Of a DNA stretch of 11,121 nt, positions 1-11,121 are shown piece by piece. Within the stretch, counting starts at the first letter, position 1, and every line of letters starts with the position of its first letter. The stretch spans positions 1-11,121 of the forward strand of contig CAYXAY010000024.1 in the NCBI GenBank assembly GCA_964463155.1, given 5' to 3'. The DNA is from an uncultured archaeon (GTDB lineage: Archaea; Iainarchaeota; Iainarchaeia; Iainarchaeales; CSSED10-239). The position numbers and the translations under genes are program-made. Under the pieces are notes generated by a model. It ran no database searches. It was not told the DNA's origin and saw only the letters and a list, made by a program, of their open reading frames with translations.

Positions 1-3000
1 TTTAGTATTCTTTTATCAACAGTTACTTTTTGGCCAGGACGTATTGTATATGTGCCATCTACATTTTGACTGCTACTTGTATTTAATGTACCGTTTGCAG
101 AAACCTTTATCACACCTGATACCGTCCCGTTAATAGTTAATGTAACAACCTCGTCAAAAATTATTACTTTACCATTTGTAATGGTTATATCTGCAGTTTT
201 ATCACCACTATTTAATATTATTGTTCCACTTAATTTTTTTGTCTCTAAATCCATATCTAGATCACCGCTAATAACATTTACTGCTAAATTATTAACTGTA
301 AAAGTTCCGTTAGTAATTATTAATTTCGCAGTGGTTGCTGTAGGTGTAGGTGCGGGGGTTTGTGTAGTAGTTTGCGTGGGATTTCCAGATGATCGTTTTG
401 TATTTGTTGTGCTCGTCATTGTATTTTGAGGATTGTACCATAGCAAAAAGCGTCCTGCGTTAAAATCAAAGCACATTGTTTCGGTGGTTATTCCTGTTAT
501 CATATTTTGAACAGTGCTGGTTTCTTCTGGCTTGTATTTGCTTATACCAACTAGGCTATATGGTATTCCATAAATATACTGGTAACTTCCTACTGCAGCT
601 AATTGTTGTGGATCAACATTGAAACTGAAATCAGATGACGAGGATACCTTTAATTGATAATTTATTCCTCTAGCCGTTTGTTTTAGATTATTGAATACAA
701 ACAATGTGTCCTTTCGTTGTGTGCTGTCTACTGATTTGTATTTTCCCAGCAGAACATATTCTATTAAATAATCTGAATTTGCAAGAACTTGTATTGGTCT
801 TATGTCTTTAAAGGTTATGTTCTTGTGGTTAGATGGGACAGATAGTATGTATCCATCTTGAACCTCATTATACTGGTCGTAATTGCTTAGTACAGTAGTA
901 GTTTTTTTCTGTATACCCAAACTGTCTGTTATATCGCTGAAAGGTACTCCGTCATATCGGTAATAATAAGCGTTTGTTGGGTTTGTAAAGAATATATTTT
1001 TCTGGAAATCTGAATTGTTGTTATAGTAATCCAAATGCTTATTTAAGTCATCTGACACTCTCTGAACAGTATATTCCATTTTTTTGTCGCGGGCCGAGTT
1101 TTGGGAGGAAGGTGGAAGTATAATATTTACACGATATGTCCCTGGAGCGGAAATTGCTTTTATTGGAGAGGAATTATTTAAATCTATTCTCCAACCATCG
1201 TTCATGAACCCCTCTGCTGTAAAGATTTTAGGTGTTAGTCCGGTAGCATTTAAATCTCCATAGGTCTTTGCATTAATAATGAATGGAGAGATTGTGTCTC
1301 CGTAATAGATTTGCATAGTGTTTAGGAATTGGGTTAAAAATTCTAATATTGTTGCTTGATTACCTTCTGATGTTGTTGAATCGTTTATCATTTGTTCTAA
1401 CCCGCGACTTCTTAAGAAAGAATCAACAGTGAATTGATAATTATTTTTATCTTTATTAAAGTTGTTATCGCTTGTATGCGTGATTAATGTTGTGATGTTG
1501 TTGTCGTTAAGATTTTCTTTTGGCAAGATTTTGACTTCAATTATTGTAAATTTTTTTAATTCTGAAGGAACTGTTCCTAATATTTTCTCTAATGATGATA
1601 ATTGTTCTACAGAATTTTTATCTGTAAATTCTTCGTTAGAAACAGCGGTTTCAATTATTGCTTTGTATACAGGGTTTGTTGTCATTGGACTTTTTGCAAC
1701 CTTGTTTCCGTCAGCTAAGAAATTTATTCCATCAAGTTTTATTATTGTATTTTGTTTAAAAAATACTGCTTTCTTTGACATTGCTATTCTTAATTGGTCT
1801 TGGTCACAATATACTACACCATAATCGCAGGTATTGTGATTGATTTCACTGGCATTATATATAAATAGTAATCTGTTAAATCCGTATTTATTATAATTTG
1901 CTTTCCCTGTAACACCTTTTTTTGCTTGGCCTTTTGGATCATAACATTCACCAGAATCAATTTGTGGACTTGTTGAAAGATAGGCAGAGAACGCTTGTTC
2001 TGTCTCTTCTTTTTTGTCTAGTCGGTCATCTTTTATTTTTGGTTGAGTTTGGTCAGGGTCTGGTTTCGGTGGAATTTGGTCAGGGCCTGGTTTCGGTGGA
2101 ATTTGTCCAGACAATGTTGGACTTGTGTCTTTCATCTCACCTAAATTACCTAACCATTGTAGGTTGTCCGTAAATGTTATTTCTTCTTCTATTTCACTAT
2201 AGTTTAATCTTGGTGATGAATACCCAACAGCAAGCATTGCTTTCAAGTTGATTGTATTTCCTAAATCAAAATAACCCTTTCTTATATTTGTTGCAATCTT
2301 TGCTACACTTTCGTTAGTGTCTATCTGGAATGCTTTTTCATTAATCTCTGGGTTTCTTCTTACAGAAATTGTCATTATCTCTGTTGTCTTTCCATCAATT
2401 ACCCTGTATGTTTTCTTTGGCTTTAATTCTTTGTTTACATCTCCTATTGAGAAATATTGTATTCCGCCAACCTCTGACATCTCTGGGTTTAGTACTTTTA
2501 AGTCTATTAAAGCGTAACCTGCATCATAACAGGTGTTAATTACCATTAATTTCTGTGGAGTTGTGTCTATTCCAGAGAAATCAAATGTTGTTGGTGATAC
2601 TTTTATACAACTGCTTGGAAGGATGTCAAGTGGTCTGTTTACTGTAACTGGTATGTCTTTAACATAAGTGTATTCTTCTATTGTGTCGTCGTTTGGTTTT
2701 GCGTTTACTGCGATCTTATATTGTCCAAGAATTTGTGCACCTTGAACTTCTAGCATTTGTGTTTGTCCTCTCTTTAATGTCATCTCCGCATTATTAACAA
2801 CAGTAACTCCTGCAACAGAAGTAAACTCCAATGCAAGTTCTTCATGACAATTATTTCTTACTTGTATCTGTGCTGTGTGACAACCGAATTGTCCTTGACT
2901 TCCAAAGCCCACTCCATGATAACCTGGTGGCGGGTTTTCTGTAAAGTTATTAAATGGATAACTTTGTTGATAATTTCCAAAGGTGTTTGGATAAGCAAAC

Positions 3001-4580
3001 AATCCGCTTTGGTAGTATGCTTGTGGAGCCCTTCCACCATATTGATAAGGATTTTGCCCAAATATTAATGGGTTAAATGCCATGGTGTTTGAACCATACA
3101 TTCCATAACCGTATGCTGCACAGTATGGTACAACAATTGGTGTTGTTGGTGTTTCTATACAGCTTACATAATTATTAAATATTAGTCTTGGCTTATGCTG
3201 TGACCTTATCTCATCAATGCCGTTTGTGTTTGGTCTGTTACTTGTAAATGTTAATATTGGTGTTGATACTCCCCCCTTTACTGTGTTACTTGTTTTGAAA
3301 ACAAGCCTTATGTCTGCAGACTTTCCTGCAACAATCTTGTTTGTGACATCAACCTTTTCATCAAGTGTTAGTTTCTTTTCTTGTCCTGAAACAACAACAT
3401 AGAAATTTCCAAGTTTCTTTGTGTTCTTGTAGTCTGCTTCAACATATATTCTCCCAAGATCTACAGGGATATTGTCAACAGCACATGTGTTTTTTAGTTT
3501 TACTATATATTCAACATCATTTGTTGATTCTAATCTTATAGTGGTTTCTTCTGGATCAACAACTAGACAATCTGTGCTGTCAATAGCGTTACCAAATGTT
3601 ATTCTTATTGTTAATGGAATCTCAATTACCCAAGTCTTTGCAAGAGTTGCCTCATTTACTGTCACAAGAAGATTTGTCTTTAGCATCTTTTGTGTCATCA
3701 AATCTATGCCATTTTCTGTTAGCTTTGTTGTTAACTCTATTCCTATTTGAGAATTTGGGTCTATTATTATTCCAGAAGAATTACTTGTCAATCTTACATA
3801 TTCAGAGCTTGTGGCTAGTTTTATGCCTGTTATTGTTAATGGTAGCATTGTGTTGTTCATCAAGACCATGTTTGTTTTGTCAGAATAACCTTTTGAAATA
3901 TCCAATTGGATTTCTAGTTTTTCCGGAATTGCTGAAATTAGAGTCTCTGAAACAACAATCTTTGTTGTGTGTGTTCCAAATCCTTGCTTTCTCACAGTTA
4001 TTTCAACCGCACTGCTTGCGTTTGTTGCTGGAAGTATAAATGCAAATATTCCTTCTCTGTTTGTTTTGCCATCAACCACTGCTTTTCCATTTATTCTTAC
4101 AAACACCCCTGCATCAACTATTGAAAGGTTACTATCATCTGTAACTCCAACAGCAACCGTGTTAGGAACAAATGGAACTATTGTTTTTGGTACAATGTCA
4201 ACAACAAGTTTTTTGGATGGTTTTAAATTAAATAATATTTTCTTTGAAAAGATTACTTCTCCGTCTGACATTAATGTCATTGTCAGTTCATCACTAACAT
4301 CATTAGTCACACTTAAGTCTATGTCTCCTATTATTGTTCCGTTTGCTGAAACGCTTCCCAGATTTATGTTTGAAAAATCATTGTCTGTGATTGGGAAGTC
4401 TCCGCCAGGAGTTATTGTGTAATTATTAAGTTTTATTGTTCTTCCTGCAGTTGAGATAATCATTACTGCATCGTTTGCTGGTCTTTGTAGGTTTAATCTG
4501 AAATTAAATTTATAGTCTGTTCCGTCTTTTGCTGTGAACTTGTCAATCACTCTCTTTTCCTGACCGGTTGCCTTGTCCTT
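1..4580 (-). CDS. Giant surface protein, segment B: same reading frame continuing directly after the TGA (1,526 further codons, 3'-partial, runs off the window start)
   Basis: The same frame stays open from 4580 down to position 3, with no stop found on row-by-row hand translation. It reads RTRQPVREKRVIDKFTAKDGTDYKFNFRLNLQ.. and ends ..NVDGTYTIRPGQKVTVDKRIL at the window edge. It contains further beta-sandwich modules, paired cysteines, the low-complexity loop, the Pro-rich repeat and the Thr/Pro linker. It has no export signal of its own after the TGA; the first candidate starts are GTG 4548-4550 and ATG 4461-4463. It therefore makes sense only as a continuation of segment A. Confidence 0.8.
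327..422 (-). other. Thr/Pro-rich linker in the giant protein
   Basis: The translation is TMTSTTNTKRSSGNPTQTTTQTPAPTPTATTA. It separates a globular region (..CFDFNAGRFLLWYNPQN) from the terminal ..ITNG.. repeat region. This composition is typical of extended, often glycosylated, extracellular linkers. Confidence 0.7.
2044..2110 (-). repeat. 27-nt tandem repeat (about 2.5 copies) encoding a proline-rich 9-aa repeat hinge
   Basis: On the + strand, tgagtttggtcagggtctggtttcggt (2044-2070) and ggaatttggtcagggcctggtttcggt (2071-2097) share 24 of 27 positions. A partial third copy, ggaatttgtccag, follows at 2098-2110. On the minus strand this encodes Q-IPPKPGPD-Q-IPPKPDPD-Q-TQPKIKDD. The antisense track ORF 1922..2173 shows the same period (VEFGQGLVS repeated twice, then a partial third copy VEFVQ). 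Confidence 0.9.
2883..3119 (-). other. 79-residue Tyr/Gly/Gln/Asn/Phe/Pro low-complexity loop bracketed by two Cys codons (3120-3122 and 2880-2882)
   Basis: Hand translation gives C-AAYGYGMYGSNTMAFNPLIFGQNPYQYGGRAPQAYYQSGLFAYPNTFGNYQQSYPFNNFTENPPPGYHGVGFGSQGQFG-C. My counts are G 14, Y 11, F 8, Q 8, N 8 and P 8, together 57 of 79. The only ionisable residues are one R, one E and one H. Confidence 0.85.
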
Positions 4581-4583
4581 CAA
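4581..4583 (-). other. Single in-frame TGA (codon 797) inside the giant reading frame
   Basis: The + strand TCA at 4581-4583 is in frame. The mRNA context is GGT TCA TAT TGA AGG ACA AGG (..G S Y * R T R..). It is the only stop triplet among 2,323 in-frame codons in the window. Confidence 0.9.
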
Positions 4584-6971
4584 TATGAACCTATAACAAA
4601 TTCCGCTATCACAAGCAGTTGACTCGCCAACATAAATTGCAAGCATGTTTGCATAAGCATATAGCGATTGCTTTGTTGTTGAACCCATTCCTGTGCCTAA
4701 GACATTGTCTTGTGGGTTTCTTAGAACTGTTGTTCCGTGATAATACTCTGCTCTGTAAAAGATTGCCTGGTTTGCCATTGCTGTGTCTTTTACAACAATG
4801 TCTACATCAACGATATATGAACCTTCTATTGGGTTGTCAAGAATGACATTAAACCATTTTGCGTCTTTTTTTACAACTGACGCTAAGTCCTTTGACTCTC
4901 CTTGGCAAGGCGTGTAGTTGATTGAACCAACAACTTTGTTTCTTGCATAACTTATTTGTTTAATGTAAATTGAGTCTTCTGAAACTGTGTGCGTTTTGTT
5001 GTCACAACTGTCTCCTTCTCCTGTTCTTATATGAGCCACTACTTTTGAATATCTCTTGTCAACATTTAAAACAAATCTTGCTGTTGCTGATTGGCCGGCG
5101 ACAACGCTTGTAAGTATGTCTCCATTACTTGCAAAGTAACCGATGAATCTAATGTTTGCTGAGCGTGATGTTCCTGTTGGAATTATTATTCTGTCTTTAA
5201 GCATACTGCCTGCTTGAACAGAATATTGCTTTGTAATTACTTTTGTCCCTTCTTTTTCTATTAAGAAATATATTTTTTTATCAGCCCTTACTGGAATTAT
5301 AACAAGACCAGTTTCGTTTGTTGTTGTTTGCTTTTCAACCATTTCTATGTTGGTTGCTGAATCATATACTTTTATTGTTGCTTGAGAATATGGTACTCTA
5401 TCAGAATCAAGTATTGTTAGGTTATATGTTCCTTGGCCTATTGTTATTATTATTGGAACATCTGTTGCTTCTCTTTCCTTAACTACGAAATTATTTGTTC
5501 TACCAGAGAACTGACCAGTTATTGCTTCTGCAAAGTAGGTTGTACTTGGATCAAGGTTAGGGATTATTACTCTTCCACTAACATCTGTTGTTACAATCTT
5601 AACAACGCTGTTGTCTATAGCATCCCAAATCTTTACAGTGGCATACTCTATTGGTATCATCTCTCTGTCTGTTACGCTAATGTTTGCAAGACTGGTTGAT
5701 GTTGCATCTATGCTTATTAATTGTATATCTATTATGCTTGTTGAAATGCTTACTTGTCTGTTTGATAACAAGTATCCTGCTTTGTCTAATGATAATGAAT
5801 ATGAAACATTTTCTCGGACTCCAAACTTTACAGAACCTGTTGAGTCTGTTGTTTTTGTGTCAATTATTGCTCCGCCTTTTGAAAGCTTTGCGCTTACTCC
5901 TTCAAGGTGTCTTCCTGTTATCTTGTCTTTGACTTTTATTTCAATATAACCTATTATGTCTTTTTTTATTTTTAACTCTGTGCTGTTTAATCCTGTTTTT
6001 ATTAATACTGGTGTTACAAGGTTGTTTGCATAATCTAAATCAGTTATTCCAGAATAAACTGTTCGGGGATCAGAAACCAATATCTTGTATTGCTTTGATA
6101 CAATGACTAATTCTGAAATGAATATTCCGTTTGAGTTTGTTTGCCCGCTATCAACAATCTTTCCTGTGCTGTCATAGATTGTCACAGACAGGTTTGGGAT
6201 TGTTAGTAATGTGTCTTTGTCTTTTACTATTACTGACAATGTTGCAAAGTTGTTGCTTGCACTAAATATTATTTGTCCGATTGTGTCTGCTTGTGGGATG
6301 TTAACCTCAAAATCTGATCTTCCTTCAATGTTTGCTTGTAGACTTCCACAGTTTACTGGAATGTCGTTTAATGTGTATTCTCCGCCTGTTACTTTTACTG
6401 TCTTTCTGTAATCTGCAGTCATACAATAGAAATCAACTGTTAGTTCTGAGGTTACTGATTCTCCTGATCTTGTTTTAAATTGTATTGTTTTTGTTATTTT
6501 GTTTATTCCTTTCGCTAAATATATTAAGTAGTTTTTCTTAGAGCTTGGGTTAAGATTATATTGTTGTTTGTTTTGTGAAAATATATAGCTTTCATCAACT
6601 AACTTAAAAGTGTATAGTTGTGATTTGTCTAAATCTAAATACACATAACCCTCTTCATCTGTCATTAATGTTCTTGGTGTGTCGTTTAGTGTTACCCTAA
6701 GAACTATGTCTGATAATGGGTTGTTTGTTTCATCCATAAATCTTAGTTCTGTTCCTGATGGCTTTCCTGTAACTCCAAAGCCTGGAAGCATTAAGAAAAT
6801 TATTAATCCTATTATTGCAAACATTAATAGAATAAAAATTGGGAATGTAGGTATTCCGTTTTTCTCAAAAGGGTCAACTATCTTGTAGAAGTTAATTCCT
6901 TTTTCTTCAAGATTATCAAGCATTTCAAAATACTTGTCTTCTAGATTGTAGTAGAACTCTTTTAAACCCAT
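4581..6971 (-). CDS. Giant surface protein, segment A: complete standard-code ORF (796 aa, ATG 6971 to TGA 4581-4583); N-terminal signal anchor plus tandem beta-sandwich repeats. Not in the supplied ORF track
   Basis: I hand-translated the minus frame whose codons start at + coordinates divisible by 3. ATG lies at 6969-6971 and an in-frame TAA lies upstream at 7005-7007. No in-frame TTA, CTA or TCA triplet occurs on the + strand until TCA at 4581-4583. The product begins MGLKEFYYNLEDKYFEMLDNLEEKGINFYKIVDPFEKNG-IPTFPIFILLMFAIIGLIIFLMLPGF-GVTGKPSGTELRFMDETNNPLSDIVLRVTLNDTPRTLMTDEEGYVYLDL.. and ends ..STTKQSLYAYANMLAIYVGESLLVIAEFVIGSY*. Only short antisense ORFs cover this span in the track. Confidence 0.85.
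5170..6750 (-). other. Array of at least five tandem carboxypeptidase-regulatory-like (prealbumin/PEGA-like) beta-sandwich modules
   Basis: A recurring pattern runs [IV]x[IV]xD..(P)[IL]..[AV].[IV].[IL]...(4-10)..T[DNT]..G.[IVF].[IF]..[IL]......Y.[IL].[IVL]. Examples: LRVTLNDTPRTLMTDEEGYVYLDLDKSQLYTFKL; LSVTIYDSTGKIVDSGQTNSNGIFISELVIVSKQYKILV; IEIKVKDKITGRHLEGVSAKLSKGGAIIDTKTTDSTGSVKFGVRENVSYSLSLDKAGY; ATVKIWDAIDNSVVKIVTTDVSGRVIIPNLDPSTTYFAEA; ATIKVYDSATNIEMVEKQTTTNETGLVIIPVRADKKIYFLIEKEG. A sixth copy lies near 3975-4125 (VFVRINGKAVVDGKTNREGIFAFILPATNASSAVEITVRKQGF). The modules are divergent at nucleotide level. Confidence 0.6.
6777..6854 (-). other. Single transmembrane signal-anchor helix of the giant protein (residues 40-65)
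   Basis: The helix is IPTFPIFILLMFAIIGLIIFLMLPGF. It follows a 39-residue acidic, aromatic N-terminus (MGLKEFYYNLEDKYFEMLDNLEEKGINFYKIVDPFEKNG) and precedes polar beta-rich sequence. No signal-peptidase-like A-x-A site is evident. Confidence 0.7.
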
Positions 6972-7001
6972 TTTTGAAAACCTTTTTTTATTCTTTCTTT
7001 T

Positions 7002-7017
7002 TATTTAAATATTTAAA
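7002..7017 (-). promoter_or_regulatory. Candidate TATA-like promoter element for the giant gene (tandem TTTAAATA on the minus strand)
   Basis: The + strand carries tatttaaa twice in tandem (7002-7009 and 7010-7017), which reads TTTAAATA TTTAAATA on the minus strand, 31-46 nt upstream of ATG 6971. That would fit an archaeal TATA box with a very short leader. The spacer is so AT-rich that chance matches are likely. Only a weak AGGT lies at about -13..-10, and there is no GGAGG. Confidence 0.3.
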
Positions 7018-7132
7018 ATTTAAATATTATATATATTATTAATTTAAACATTTGTTTATAAATATTGCTTTTTTTATAAATATATAGTTAGTTAAAAAGG
7101 TTTATAAAATAATACTAATTAACCGGCATAAG

Positions 7133-8851
7133 TTAGTTACTCTCCGGGCTACAACCTGGACTATCGTCTGGAGAAACTTGACTATAGCATATCCATTCTG
7201 GGGAATCAGGGTTTGCTGATGTCAAATTTTCAGCTGTTAAGTAACCTGTCGTTGTATTTACGGTCAATTGACTCCAATTGTTGTTTGGAGGGAAATAGAA
7301 AGGGGTGTATGTGTCATATATAAAGACGTGTATTCTAGTTTTTGTGTTTCCGTGATAAGTGTCTTTTATTTTGTATCTTGGGTCTGTTTCTTTAAACTCT
7401 AATTTTATTTCTGTGGAATGTAATTCTACGCAGCCAAGTGTGGCTGATTCTTGTGTATTATCGATTGTCACTTGTAGGTTGTAGTTTTCGTTGTAAAAGT
7501 CGTGGTTTTTAAACCAGATAAGCTCTGAAATATTTAGGGTGTCGTTCCAGAAAAGACCTAGGCCTCCAGCCACTGTTGGCATATTTTCTATTCTTGAAAA
7601 AATTTTTTGTTGATAAGTCGGAAGTGTATCCGTCATTGCTGTAACAAATCTTTTTGTTCTTTTCCGCTCAGTGATTGCTTTTATTTCTTTTATTTTTAGT
7701 TGTTGACTGCCATAGATTTTATTAGATTCTAAATCTAAACCGTTTCCGTAGGTTATTCTTTCGTTCTGTCTTTCATTCAAGGTGTAATTGAAATCAGAAA
7801 CATAAAGTGTCGTGAATTGTTCATTTAATGTTGGGGCATAAACATTATATGTTTGAGCTGGTGGTGTTTGAATGTTAGATAGAGTATCTGATTCTATTTG
7901 TTGGTCCGGGATTTCATGACATTGCTCGTCTAGAACTCCTGATACATTTGGAGTCTTAAAGAAGCTTGTTCTTGGAGCGCAGGTTCCTGGGTCGCAAAAG
8001 CCAAGCCTTGCTTGCTCAAAGATGTTGTGTTTTATAGGATTGAATAGTCCTTTGTCTTGTGGATGTTGGCCTGGAGAAGATGAACGTTCAGCGTTATTAT
8101 CACGAACGATGTTTCTTGCAACACGCAGGGCTTGAAAGCCACGCCATGGCATGTATATCTTGTAGATTTGCCTGCTTAGAACAGGTCTTTGAATCACTTG
8201 TTTTGTCTTATATTTAACAACCGTAACAACTGGCAACAACTCATAGTTTGCATCATCTAATTTTGTGGTATCAAGAGTCAAATAGAAAGAACCTATGCAG
8301 TTGTCTACAGTATTACAATCAACAACATCAACTTTTTCTCCGCCGTCCTTAAATATTCTTTCAACAAGAATGTCAAATTTGTTTTCATCATCGACGTCGA
8401 TCGGCCGGCCATAATTATCAATTCTGTAACCGGTATGCTCTTCTATTTTTATGTTATAACCTGGGGGGTACTGAGAATATTTTAAATTGAATAATAGGGC
8501 TTGTGCAAAATATGCAGCAAATTTTCTTTCAAAGAACTTTTCCTTTACAAAAGAATCCACAAACGCGCTCCAATTTTTGTCTATGTCTTGCCTGTTCAAA
8601 CGAAGTTCGTTGTTTGGTTTTGACTTATGTTCTTCCCAGGATGATCTTAAGTTTATTATGAAAGTGTTAAATGCATCTGCTCTTGCAATATCTGCAACAG
8701 TCATCAAATCAGACATTGAAGACTGGTCTTGAATCAATGACAAATAAGTTTCCTCTGTGTTAATCATGTTAAAGATTAGGGCCAGAGATATAGATACTAA
8801 TAACAAAGATATTAATGCTGTAAATAATGTAAAACCTTTTTGTGTTTTCAT
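7133..8851 (-). CDS. Large (572 aa) type IV pilin-like / minor-pseudopilin-like extracellular protein with a non-canonical prepilin signal
   Basis: The track ORF runs from ATG 8849-8851 to a TAA stop at 7133-7135. An in-frame TAG lies 7 codons upstream of the ATG, so this is the first possible start. The N-terminus is MKTQKG-FTLFTALISLLLVSISLALIFNMI. The remainder is polar with 8 cysteines, six of them in close pairs (VDCNTVDNC, FCDPGTC, WIC..SPGC), which fits an exported, disulfide-bonded protein. All 7 Trp codons are TGG. Confidence 0.85.
   Translation of the reverse strand: MKTQKGFTLFTALISLLLVSISLALIFNMINTEETYLSLIQDQSSMSDLMTVADIARADAFNTFIINLRSSWEEHKSKPNNELRLNRQDIDKNWSAFVDSFVKEKFFERKFAAYFAQALLFNLKYSQYPPGYNIKIEEHTGYRIDNYGRPIDVDDENKFDILVERIFKDGGEKVDVVDCNTVDNCIGSFYLTLDTTKLDDANYELLPVVTVVKYKTKQVIQRPVLSRQIYKIYMPWRGFQALRVARNIVRDNNAERSSSPGQHPQDKGLFNPIKHNIFEQARLGFCDPGTCAPRTSFFKTPNVSGVLDEQCHEIPDQQIESDTLSNIQTPPAQTYNVYAPTLNEQFTTLYVSDFNYTLNERQNERITYGNGLDLESNKIYGSQQLKIKEIKAITERKRTKRFVTAMTDTLPTYQQKIFSRIENMPTVAGGLGLFWNDTLNISELIWFKNHDFYNENYNLQVTIDNTQESATLGCVELHSTEIKLEFKETDPRYKIKDTYHGNTKTRIHVFIYDTYTPFYFPPNNNWSQLTVNTTTGYLTAENLTSANPDSPEWICYSQVSPDDSPGCSPESN
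8762..8851 (-). other. Class III (prepilin-type) signal peptide plus hydrophobic N-terminal helix; predicted cleavage after Gly6
   Basis: A short basic leader (MKTQK) is followed by Gly6 (codon 8834-8836), then F-T-L-F-T and about 22 hydrophobic residues. This matches the bacterial prepilin peptidase / N-methylation motif ([KR]-G-F-T-L-x-E) except that position +5 is Thr rather than Glu. Confidence 0.55.
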
Positions 8852-8902: not shown

Positions 8903-11121
8903 TTATGCAACCCTTGGACCATGCTGTTCATAAAGTGCATAACCGTGTTTTGGAATTACAACTTGGCAAATTCTGTTTATGGAGATCTCGTGCGTAAATC
9001 TAGTATCTAATGGTTCTAAAAAAACATCGCTAGTAAATTGATGAATTATCATGTCTTGTCCATAGTTTTTCCCAACATACAATACTGCATGTGATGGCGT
9101 TACACAATCCGTTCCTTTGGTTATTCCTATAGTGATTATTGAACCAGGAATCAAATAGTTATCAAAATCATAAATTGAATCTGTTTGTGCATCCCAAACA
9201 ACTGTGTTGTTTTTACCTATCTCCCAGGCATCTCCATTAACATATTCAGTATGTACATAATGTTTTTCAGCCACCCTTTGTGCAAACGCTGAACAATAAT
9301 CTGGGTATAGTGAACCAATGTCTAAACATTGTGTTTGGGTGTTTTTTGGAAATCTACATCTGGTGTAGGCTTGTAATTTACTTTGCATTTCAGAAAACAT
9401 TTCTGTCTGAAGTGCATATAGTGAGTTTGTTTCGTATTCAGTTTTTTGTTTTATTTTTTCGTTGTTTGTTTGAGGTGTTGAAGATTGTAGAAGTTCTGTT
9501 TGGTGTTCAGCGGTTAGTATTTCTTTTATTTCCTTGTCTTCCTTGTAGTATATTTTGTTGTCTTCAGAGATTGATGGAATTTCTTTAATCATTTGCACAT
9601 TAATTTTATTATTATTATTATTAACAATAACTACTCTATACCAATTGCCTTTATCAAACTCAGAGGTTGGCAGGTTTTCAATATATGCTTGGTTATTGAA
9701 TTGACCTTCTTCAGCTAGTACATCTAGTGCTGATTTTCCCATTTTGTTTGCAAAATAAACGATTGCCATATCTAATAAAAAATTAGTACCTATCCTTGCT
9801 CTCTTGCCCCACTTAGTTGCGCCAATCTTTGAGAAATTAGTGCTTTTTACTTGCAAGTCATCCAGCTTTTTAGAAAGATCACCAGGTAAGTCATATGCTC
9901 CACTACTGTTAACGGGGGTGGATTTTAAGTTCTTAAGACCATCTAAAGAATCATCAACTAATTGTTTCTGATTAGTCAATTCATCTATTTGGGTTTGAAG
10001 TTTAGTTGATCTTGTGCTTTGTCTTACAGTTAACTTTCCATCAACTGATTTCTTTTGCGCAGTTAAGTTATCTATCTGTTTTTTATATTCTTTAGATAAT
10101 TTATCATAGCTATCAATTCTTCTAGTTAGATCTGCGTTTGTTATTGTTCTTGAAACAACTTGCGTGGATGAACCAAGATTCTGTGTTTTAAATACATTAT
10201 CAATCTCATCAATTGATAAATTTACTGTTGAATTCGCTTTAGCTATGTCATCTATCTGTGTTTTTAAGGCATCGTCTATTTGATATCCCGTAGCAGTTCT
10301 AGACTGTGCAAATTTTGTTTTTACTGTTTCAATCTCTGTTTTTGCAATTGCAATTTTTGTTTTTGCGTTTAATAAACCGCCATCTGTGGGTTTTAGTTTT
10401 AATGCTTCATCAATTGTATCTGCATGTGAGTTTAATGTTTTTAATGTTTCATCTGAGTTATTTATGAATGCTTGGGCAGCGTCATCAGAAACCTGATGGA
10501 TATTTGTTACTCCCTGATTATATTGCGTAAATCTGTTCAAAAATGTTGTACGATATGTTGAAGAATAATTTTTGTATGTTCCTCCATTTAATATATCTGC
10601 TAATTTTTGTTTTTCTGAACCGGTTAATTTTTCAAATGCGTGGTAATTTAGAGTATATGTAGCTGTTTGTCCATAAGCTCCTGTTGGAGGAGGTTTTGTT
10701 GTAGTTATTTTTCCAAATATAGCTCCTAAATCTGTAGCATCTGCTGGAGTTGGAGTAAATATCGCTCCATTTTTAGGAATAGCGGGATAAAGTCCTCTTG
10801 CAATTGCCTGATGATTAGTTACTAATTGACGTTTAAATCCAGCTAATTCTGCACCAGTTAATCCACCTGTGGATGTTGTGGTTACGCCAGTTAGTCCACT
10901 TACATGTTTTGTTGCGGTGTATGTGATTTCGTCCGTGTATGTCGGATTTGTTACGACGTCTGGAATTGTAATTTGTGTTGCACTTTTTGTTCTGGTCAAT
11001 TCTGTTGCTGCTGGTCCAATTATGCCCAGATTTGTAGGATCAAATATTTTTCCAACTAACTCTACTATAGGCCCTAACGCCGCACCCATTACTTCCCCTA
11101 TCCATTTTAGGAAAGGAATCT
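8903..11121 (-). CDS. Coiled-coil protein with C-terminal NlpC/P60-like (papain-fold Cys-His-His) cell-wall hydrolase domain; probably 5'-partial
   Basis: The ORF track gives 8903..11089 (728 aa), with a TAA stop at 8903-8905. The frame stays open from the first ATG (11087-11089) to the window edge (..IPFLKWIGEV-MGAALGPIVELVGKIF..). Those 32 nt are not extremely AT-rich like the two real intergenic spacers, so the true start probably lies beyond 11121. Residues ~205-415 (about 9845..10477) are helical and heptad-like, rich in Q/K/D/T, with a recurring QID[DEN] motif (KTQIDDIAK, KKQIDNLTAQ, QTQIDELTNQ). The C-terminal catalytic motifs are listed in the next feature. Confidence 0.85.
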   Translation of the reverse strand, partial: IPFLKWIGEVMGAALGPIVELVGKIFDPTNLGIIGPAATELTRTKSATQITIPDVVTNPTYTDEITYTATKHVSGLTGVTTTSTGGLTGAELAGFKRQLVTNHQAIARGLYPAIPKNGAIFTPTPADATDLGAIFGKITTTKPPPTGAYGQTATYTLNYHAFEKLTGSEKQKLADILNGGTYKNYSSTYRTTFLNRFTQYNQGVTNIHQVSDDAAQAFINNSDETLKTLNSHADTIDEALKLKPTDGGLLNAKTKIAIAKTEIETVKTKFAQSRTATGYQIDDALKTQIDDIAKANSTVNLSIDEIDNVFKTQNLGSSTQVVSRTITNADLTRRIDSYDKLSKEYKKQIDNLTAQKKSVDGKLTVRQSTRSTKLQTQIDELTNQKQLVDDSLDGLKNLKSTPVNSSGAYDLPGDLSKKLDDLQVKSTNFSKIGATKWGKRARIGTNFLLDMAIVYFANKMGKSALDVLAEEGQFNNQAYIENLPTSEFDKGNWYRVVIVNNNNNKINVQMIKEIPSISEDNKIYYKEDKEIKEILTAEHQTELLQSSTPQTNNEKIKQKTEYETNSLYALQTEMFSEMQSKLQAYTRCRFPKNTQTQCLDIGSLYPDYCSAFAQRVAEKHYVHTEYVNGDAWEIGKNNTVVWDAQTDSIYDFDNYLIPGSIITIGITKGTDCVTPSHAVLYVGKNYGQDMIIHQFTSDVFLEPLDTRFTHEISINRICQVVIPKHGYALYEQHGPRVA
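8906..9367 (-). other. NlpC/P60-like papain-fold hydrolase domain (candidate triad Cys599, His667, His683)
   Basis: The translated motifs are LYPDYC(599)SAFAQRV (Cys codon 9293-9295), LIPGSIITIG, then PSH(667)AVLYVGKNYGQDMIIH(683)QF (His codons 9089-9091 and 9041-9043). Their order and spacing (Cys, 68 aa, His, 16 aa, His) and the hydrophobic strand before the first His match canonical, non-permuted NlpC/P60 or CHAP-type peptidoglycan amidases and endopeptidases. This is motif recognition only. Confidence 0.6.

Follow-up and report, generated by a model that had tools for sequence, protein, structure and literature searches.

We analyzed an 11,121-nucleotide stretch of DNA (hereafter, the window; contig CAYXAY010000024.1 of GenBank assembly GCA_964463155.1) from an uncultured, tiny archaeon of the phylum Iainarchaeota (Diapherotrites, DPANN). 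Three genes lie on its minus strand, i.e., the C-terminal end of a giant gene cut by the right edge (G1), a gene for a 572-amino acid (aa) pilin-like protein, and a second giant gene (G2) that fills the left part of the window and is the subject of this study. The G2 frame (positions 3–6971) is near-certainly a real and nearly complete gene of a family of giant, predicted surface proteins of the Iainarchaeota.

Translation of the minus strand from the ATG at 6971 down to base 3 gave 2,323 codons without a stop, and upstream of this ATG the same frame stays open for 11 further codons, up to an in-frame TAA at about 7005–7007. The remaining five frames hold 157–306 stops each (~0.064 per codon), and from these counts the chance of a stop-free run of 2,334 codons is ~e^-154. 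The start codon is backed by homologues that open with the same MGLKEFYY... sequence. A database search returned 27 relatives, the top eight of which (P0001–P0008; 2,174–2,433 aa) are 53–61% identical to G2, six of them with 100% query coverage. The full-length homologues have 2,317–2,355 aa; identity to the nearest relative is 61%. That the frame is open by chance, or is a pseudogene or artefact of assembly, is vanishingly improbable given this stop-free probability, the collinear protein homologues in 71 species-level loci, the conserved start, and the independent recovery of the neighboring gene in another assembly; the only point in favor of such a reading is that G2 was absent from the program-made list of open reading frames (ORFs), which is explained by a listing rule that omits ORFs running off the end of the source sequence.

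A preliminary description of this DNA had already reported both the giant minus-strand frame and its absence from the ORF list, and both are borne out here. It had also counted one stop triplet among the 2,323 codons and delimited a complete 796-aa piece from ATG to TGA (4581..6971), neither of which exists: codon 797 (4583–4581) is TTG (Leu), with the minus strand reading ...ATA TTG AAG..., and the TGA (4582–4580) is one base out of the giant frame. An alternative genetic code or stop read-through is unneeded for a frame with no in-frame stop. Its further claim that the gene is larger than what is visible found no support, as full-length homologues cover 100% of the query. The final residues encoded in the window (...VTVDKRIL) align 3–11 residues short of the stops of the homologues, and the full protein would therefore have ~2,326–2,334 aa, with ~3–11 codons missing. 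Extension of the contig to the true 3' end, which the description had proposed, did not succeed: two exact-DNA scans of Joint Genome Institute (JGI) metagenomes with the left end of the window found nothing, and an exact-protein look-up of the 572-aa neighbor returned only a 2.5-kb Logan contig (SRR11582140_334288) encoding an identical protein, so the position of the end is taken from the homologues.

A scan with a single genome for each GTDB species detected at least 71 distinct loci with a G2-family gene. Their labels are nearly all Candidatus (Ca.) Iainarchaeum/Diapherotrites or simply 'archaeon' (relatives carrying names are called 'Candidatus Diapherotrites archaeon' and similar), with a few Micrarchaeota and one Chloroflexi metagenome-assembled genome; one locus belongs to Ca. 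Forterrea multitransposorum (phylum Iainarchaeota), whose 0.84-Mb genome is complete. The label of the Chloroflexi-binned member (L057; JAFCCG010000009.1) is probably a binning error rather than a sign of gene transfer. In public annotation the family appears as 'hypothetical' or 'carboxypeptidase regulatory-like domain-containing', and a PHROGs scan, which bears on viral origin, gave zero matches.

Predicted leader, stalk and head of the G2 protein

The predicted protein consists of a short leader, one membrane helix, a long stalk with two disordered interruptions, a head, and a small tail (Table 1). The architecture outlined in the preliminary description was recovered in all its parts: an N-terminal stub of acidic character, one hydrophobic anchor by the Kyte-Doolittle profile, a long run of β-sandwiches with Cys-paired modules by Pfam, structure prediction, Foldseek and conserved cysteines, an aromatic/Gly/Gln loop and a Pro-rich hinge by low predicted local distance difference test (pLDDT) values and composition, and a globular Cys-containing region, a Thr/Pro linker and a β-rich ITNG tail by an AlphaFold2 (AF2) tile. 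Two of its counts changed. The cysteines do fall in consecutive pairs, but there are 18 of them in 9 pairs rather than 16, and the carboxypeptidase-regulatory-like type holds for some of the sandwiches, but Pfam supports four (residues 244–603) rather than at least six.

Table 1 Features of the window and of related loci. Positions are those of the window unless a locus is named.
Feature	Residues	Position	Strand	Remarks
Giant ORF G2	1–2323	3..6971	-	2,323 codons, ATG at 6971; open at left edge, ~3–11 codons probably missing
Conserved leader	1–39	6855..6971	-	MGLKEFYYNLEDKYFEMLDNLEEKGINFYKIVDPFEKNG; net acidic; many residues invariant or nearly so
Signal-anchor helix	40–63	6783..6854	-	Sole Kyte-Doolittle window >1.8 in the whole protein
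Stalk part 1	66–603	5163..6776	-	~Six predicted sandwiches; four CarboxypepD_reg-like at 244–603 (window 5163–6242)
Stalk part 2	604–1270	3162..5162	-	~Six predicted sandwiches; Cys pairs 656/689, 787/792, 1135/1163
Cys-flanked disordered insert	1271–1375 (core ~1285–1363)	2847..3161	-	pLDDT 24–31; conserved composition
Stalk part 3	1376–1611	2139..2846	-	Two or three predicted sandwiches (Cys1455/1481), ending in helix plus hairpin; pLDDT 70–89
Pro-rich charged hinge	1612–1667	1971..2138	-	IPPKPGPDQIPPKPDPDQ...; pLDDT <50 in both tiles
Alpha/beta head	1668–2181 (~515 aa)	429..1970	-	AF2; no Pfam family or fold match
Thr/Pro-rich linker	2182–2214	330..428	-	pLDDT 28–31
Beta-rich tail ('ITNG-repeat')	2215–2323	3..329	-	Long β-hairpins, pLDDT 76–88; cut by the edge
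Pilin-like protein	572 aa	7133..8851	-	Class-III-type N-terminus MKTQKG/FTLFTALISLLLVSISLALIF; sub-threshold family scores
G1, C-terminal end	738 codons	8903..11121	-	Open to right edge; invariant Cys...His...Gln module
G1 tip		~8903–9370	-	Carries the Cys...His...Gln module
Head paralogue	964–978 aa	L016 22641–25535, L002 22700–25633, L004 22203–25139		Signal-peptide protein two genes downstream of G2
T2SSE ATPase	760–771 aa	L077 6745–9060, L078 2075–4390, L065 6414–8693, L073 13029–15332	-	PF00437

The leader residues are strongly conserved although the aligned family sequences are only 19–62% identical overall. A hidden Markov model (HMM) built from residues 1–70 and iterated over the ORFs of the fetched loci matched 102 ORF N-termini in related loci (L002–L080), with 2–4 copies per locus and mostly on ORFs of 1,500–3,000 aa. 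Ahead of the helix, the leader has the approximate consensus FYxxLEDKYYxFLDxLExKGIPVYKxxDPIExxxIPSFP. Its carriers in Ca. Forterrea multitransposorum are G1, G2, a further giant (G3) and the giant after a 964-aa protein, and it also occurs on one 131-aa protein (L079, 21511–21906). No Pfam family matched the leader; a word-index search with the 70-aa segment returned one fragment only (P0028), which is uninformative on its spread, and the HMM was used instead. We also considered the leader of the giants as a class III signal and rejected this reading, as the Gly that precedes the hydrophobic stretch is not kept among paralogues (KFMPSF, VVPSFP, NIPTFP) and a leader without it does not look like a prepilin signal. 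The leader would lie on the cytoplasmic side, because the remainder of the protein has extracellular character.

About 15 sandwiches are predicted for the stalk in all from the strand pattern, i.e., some six at residues 66–603, six at 604–1270 and two or three at 1376–1600. The Pfam family CarboxypepD_reg (PF13620) matched the whole protein in four stretches (E 2e-17, 63.7 bits vs a cut-off of 32.3); the same modules scanned singly reached E 1.5e-5 to 4e-3 (18–26 bits), each below the threshold, and the modules beyond these four are β-sandwiches by structure prediction only. Other Pfam matches in the stalk were weak (bMG3/MG4, SpaA and SdrD_B). The family profile matched a collagen adhesion protein (6fwv) and NOMO (9c7v) among PDB sequences, where the searches with the single protein and with profiles gave matches limited to the N-terminal sandwiches. 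Self-BLAST found no internal repeats at E ≤ 1.

Profile searches, structure prediction and Foldseek on tiles had been proposed in the preliminary description, and the stalk tile indeed shows similarity of β-sandwich and adhesin type. Outside the disordered stretch, the AF2 model of this tile (residues 560–1640; mean pLDDT 74.8) is entirely of the all-beta type. Foldseek aligned it with ASH-type chains of hydin and the central apparatus, macroglobulin (MG) domains of alpha-2-macroglobulin and immunoglobulin (Ig) domains of PrgB (E 5e-22 to 5e-12), and further with C5, CD109, TEP1 and DSCAM, at TM-scores of 0.1–0.2. These matches are repeat-fold similarity, not homology to those proteins. Seven stalk cysteines are invariant in the family alignment (183, 208, 787, 792, 1135, 1163 and 1271) and three nearly so (1375, 1455 and 1481), a conservation that fits extracellular disulfides.

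For the disordered insert (pLDDT <50 over ~1286–1363), composition and not sequence is kept in 21 of 22 family members, with ~20% aromatic residues, ~20% Gln plus Asn, 8–22% Gly, at most 7% charged residues and a length of 56–144 aa; our guess is that it may act as a flexible or self-associating hinge. The length of the Pro-rich hinge is highly variable in the family alignment.

The head was modelled with the linker and tail (residues 1640–2323; mean pLDDT 74.2, with stretches >90 and up to 95). It matched no family in Pfam or NCBIfam and no PDB sequence, and its model retrieved nothing at E ≤ 1e-3 in the PDB or in the viral BFVD by Foldseek; GFP-like and fibre matches had TM-scores of ~0.1–0.2 and were treated as noise. 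Invariant positions are Thr1688, Gly1689, Cys1715, Cys1722, Asp1723, Gln1726, Lys1734, Gly2040 and Cys2167, including a [YF]-C-D-x-x-Q motif (1721–1726) at the start of a helix. Cys1676 likewise keeps its position, and the four conserved cysteines of the head (1676, 1715, 1722 and 2167) probably form two disulfides that staple it. No His, Ser or Glu of the head is invariant in the family alignment, and we therefore favor binding over catalysis as its role.

The head defines a large family of its own. A word-index search with the head profile found 4 proteins only; hence, the profile was searched exhaustively with HMMER over 1.84 billion cluster representatives (50%-identity clusters), which gave 666 representatives at E ≤ 1e-3, of which 560 reached E ≤ 1e-10 and 182 reached E ≤ 1e-30. 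In most of the 150 matches listed, the head forms the C-terminal end of ~2,300–2,700-aa proteins, and a second class of carriers has ~500–1,400 aa. To this second class belongs a 964–978-aa protein with a signal peptide, encoded two genes downstream of G2 in related loci, which matches the whole head profile (E 1e-32 to 1e-35); the head is therefore duplicated within the cluster. One further carrier (P0096; 1,243 aa) has a Peptidase_M64-like segment after the head (residues 1112–1159; 28.5 bits vs a cut-off of 26), so that certain lineages may have added further enzyme modules to the head.

The tail was found only in the closest homologues (P0001–P0007 and P0009), and most other aligned family members end 2–31 aa after the head. 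The C-termini of the homologues are polar (...TLIINNINYQ, ...LNNLSFNKTA) and without an LPXTG or PGF-CTERM sorting signal, a test that rests on the homologues since the last ~3–11 codons of G2 itself lie outside the window; the visible part of G2 has no second hydrophobic peak.

Could the protein be a protease trap or thioester protein like alpha-2-macroglobulin, in which C-D-x-x-Q binds targets covalently? The weak bMG3/MG4 matches, the Foldseek matches to alpha-2-macroglobulin, C5, CD109 and TEP1, and the invariance of Cys1722, Asp1723 and Gln1726 at the start of a helix would all agree with this, but we regard it as highly improbable: the structural similarity is that of generic β-sandwich repeats at low TM-scores, the bMG3/MG4 matches are sub-threshold, no thioester, CUB or receptor-binding domain was matched in the Pfam and PDB searches, the C-x3-Q spacing differs from CGEQ, and the even number of conserved head cysteines is most simply read as two disulfides. 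A reactive thioester at this motif that binds a host covalently is likewise a long shot.

Neighboring genes and the conserved cluster

Gene order places G2 in what is, by sequence comparison, a conserved co-directional cluster composed of G1, the pilin-like gene, G2, G3, a gene for the ~970-aa head paralogue, and further giants. At least five genes stand in the same order in L002–L005 and in the Ca. Forterrea multitransposorum locus (L016), in which ORFs of 2671, 559, 2323, 1867 and 964 aa follow each other in a row before another giant. A synteny comparison with related genomes had been suggested in the preliminary description, and the order is conserved in these five loci.

The 728-aa ORF listed at 8903–11089 represents the last 738 codons of the larger G1 gene, whose frame runs off the right edge. 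In relatives, G1 has ~2,650–3,080 aa, and the G1 end in the window can be aligned with the C-termini of the syntenic giants in L002 and L004 (35% identical to the ~2,950-aa giant of L002). The G1 tips of eight orthologues (the window and seven others, i.e., L002, L004, L007 and L010–L013) share an invariant Cys, His and Gln, in this order, with the local pattern LVPGxxIxI...PSHxVLYVGK. An NlpC/P60 (papain-fold peptidase) identity of the tip in the window, for which this order would be the right one, was considered from resemblance by eye and was unconfirmed by Pfam or PDB sequence searches.

Other lineages have different modules at this position. The C-terminal 175 aa of G1 match peptidoglycan-cleaving domains, namely the lytic transglycosylase SLT (PF01464; E 3e-12) in L030 (ORF 2–8128) and Glucosaminidase (PF01832; E 2e-11) in L043 (ORF 2–5548), both above the Pfam threshold. 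The tip module is therefore swapped between lineages, a hint that the target cells have peptidoglycan. To our knowledge, archaea make no peptidoglycan, and tips of the wall-hydrolase type would therefore act on other cells. They are the best indirect support for a cell-cell interaction of the cluster, to which they point without directly concerning G2.

The same observations bear on whether G2 is instead a structural spacer or scaffold of the envelope, similar to a surface layer (S-layer) or tetrabrachion, which would hold the wall at a fixed distance from the membrane, with the head contacting the ~970-aa paralogue laterally. An N-terminal anchor with rigid β-sandwich repeats would suit such a part, the second copy of the head, on a signal-peptide protein of its own, might serve as lattice partner, and the presence of the family in a large share of the Iainarchaeota genomes detected would befit a housekeeping component of the envelope. 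We nevertheless consider a scaffold rather unlikely, since strong divergence (19–62% identity) and swapped terminal modules are more typical of interaction proteins and the neighboring giant carries wall-hydrolase tips in some lineages. The Pfam and NCBIfam scans also detected no known S-layer domain, although S-layer proteins are diverse.

The pilin-like protein has a bacterial-looking N-terminus (MKTQKG/FTLFTALISLLLV) with the pattern K-G/F-T-L-F-T-A-L-I-S-L-L-L-V, and Thr, not Glu, at +5. Its family scores are sub-threshold (N_methyl, E 0.088, 12.9 bits vs 21.2; NCBIfam ComGF, E 0.0023, 18 vs 80 bits). It is 55% identical to the 575-aa protein of L002. In 40 loci an orthologue precedes the G2-family gene, upstream and same-strand, and the distance is 94–513 bp in 30 of the 45 loci with enough flank. 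A scan of the spacer at 6972–7132 for promoters and terminators of bacterial type was uninformative, the organism being an archaeon.

A divergent ATPase of the T2SSE family (PF00437) adjoins the first leader-bearing giant in four distant Iainarchaeum loci, with a 218-aa membrane protein between the two in L077 and L078. Together with the tightly linked pilin-like gene, and with a leader common to the cluster giants and the 131-aa protein, this adjacency would be compatible with an organelle similar to a type IV filament, in which the giants are extracted by the ATPase and mounted on or alongside a filament of the pilin-like protein as giant modular pilins or tip adhesins. Such an organelle is quite improbable: the leader is a misfit for a class III signal (~39 aa, acidic, with the Gly not conserved among paralogues), the pilin assignment is itself below family thresholds, and the fetched flanks showed neither a PilC/TadC platform nor a prepilin peptidase.

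Proposed function and comparison with known systems

Taken together, the evidence makes it likely that G2 encodes a membrane-anchored stalk-and-head surface protein of a cluster for contact. That the product is a surface protein built of a stalk and a head is very likely; that it mediates contact with other cells we hold to be probable with less assurance, and its role may be that of an adhesin. In the proposed arrangement, the 39-aa leader would stay cytoplasmic and the N-terminal helix, which is evident in the sequence and whose topology we infer, would anchor the protein in the membrane. The ~15 tandem sandwiches would form an extended stalk, perhaps tens of nanometres long, that holds the distal end at a distance from the cell, and the uncharged aromatic/Gly/Gln/Asn insert and the Pro-rich hinge could interrupt it as two flexible joints. 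The ~515-aa head, distal and conserved, would be the 'business end' of the protein, and its most likely task is the binding of a ligand carried by another cell or surface. In this subclade the Thr/Pro linker and the small β tail follow the head, and the tail may engage the ligand with it. The cluster as a whole most likely builds an apparatus for contacting other cells; in some lineages, G1 carries a tip of the wall-hydrolase type.

Several points weigh against this interpretation. The flank of the N-terminal helix is net acidic, so the positive-inside rule gives no support to the orientation with the N-terminus inside. N-glycosylation sequons are not enriched (30 found vs ~30 expected). The head has no recognisable fold or family and its role is assigned by position only, and its invariant residues (T, G, three Cys, D, Q, K and G) define no known binding or catalytic site. 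The hydrolase-like tip of G1 in the lineage of the window consists of a motif and a sub-threshold NLPC_P60 match (E 0.11), with no match among PDB sequences. Finally, the T2SSE adjacency is seen only in distant relatives, as the fetched flanks of the close relatives end inside G1.

A more far-reaching version of the contact interpretation is that the cluster encodes an undescribed archaeal attachment or penetration apparatus related to type IV filaments. Here, the T2SSE ATPase and the pilin-like protein would handle giants that share the leader, the G2 head would be a new receptor-binding fold, and G1 would carry a swappable tip that cuts peptidoglycan (SLT, glucosaminidase or NlpC/P60-like). 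This is speculative and in our view improbable; if true, the cells to which these Iainarchaeota attach, and whose walls they breach, would be bacterial rather than archaeal.

The Iainarchaeota/Diapherotrites have small genomes and are uncultured, and it is debated whether these archaea are free-living or symbiotic. The giant cluster takes up ~5% of such a small genome and is the most obvious candidate for contact with other cells; the head, the leader, the pilin-like partner and the G1 tips offer handles for identifying the host. Within a limited literature search, the shared leader, the unannotated head family (hundreds of 50%-identity clusters), the aromatic-rich insert, the pilin-like partner and the swappable G1 tips appear to be new.

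The leader of the giants can be compared by analogy with the extended signal peptide region (ESPR) of very large autotransporters and two-partner-secretion proteins, which is also a conserved N-terminal extension before a hydrophobic segment on very large exported proteins. There is no sequence relationship between the two (no Pfam match to the leader); the leader of the giants is archaeal, acidic and ~39 aa long, and the hydrophobic segment after it appears to be an uncleaved anchor. With the MG proteins of the alpha-2-macroglobulin/complement group and with NOMO of the BOS complex, G2 shares the module type, i.e., an MG- or prealbumin-like β-sandwich. This likeness is one of repeat folds only, and the thioester domain, bait region, CUB and receptor-binding domain of alpha-2-macroglobulin and complement proteins were not found in G2.

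The closest known counterpart is the cluster of Ca. Forterrea multitransposorum, for which a 42-kb region encoding five membrane-anchored proteins of >1,800 aa has been reported and contact with other cells suggested, in one sentence and a cartoon without domain analysis (Probst & Banfield 2018, PMC5905446). The Forterrea locus (L016; CP045477.1:233298–260257) matches G2 residues 1–2182 with 34% identity (E = 0), and has the same gene order (G1, pilin-like, a 2,323-aa G2, G3 and a ~964-aa protein) and also the leader and transmembrane anchor. G2 in turn has the properties described for those giants, with at least 2,323 aa, a single hydrophobic helix (residues 40–63) and an ortholog in the Forterrea region, and within the window the C-terminal end of G1, the gene for the pilin-like protein and G2 form a co-directional run on the minus strand. 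Forterrea is a separate lineage, and its protein differs from that of the window in lacking the Thr/Pro linker and the β tail. The cluster had already been noted in 2018, and the window adds a further orthologue.

Among bacterial proteins, the giant adhesins with Ig-like repeats (SdrD/SpaA-type proteins, PrgB, the Mobiluncus adhesin and Apilactobacillus Giant1-5) are the nearest in design. They differ from G2, which is archaeal, in being fixed by a C-terminal LPXTG/sortase signal or an outer-membrane barrel instead of an N-terminal transmembrane anchor, and the modules of G2 are divergent, not near-identical repeats, and its head has no known fold. What they share is a tandem β-sandwich stalk that presents a distal non-repeat module. 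Apilactobacillus Giant1-5 (PMC12863079) offer a second likeness, i.e., consecutive giant genes that occupy several percent of a small genome.

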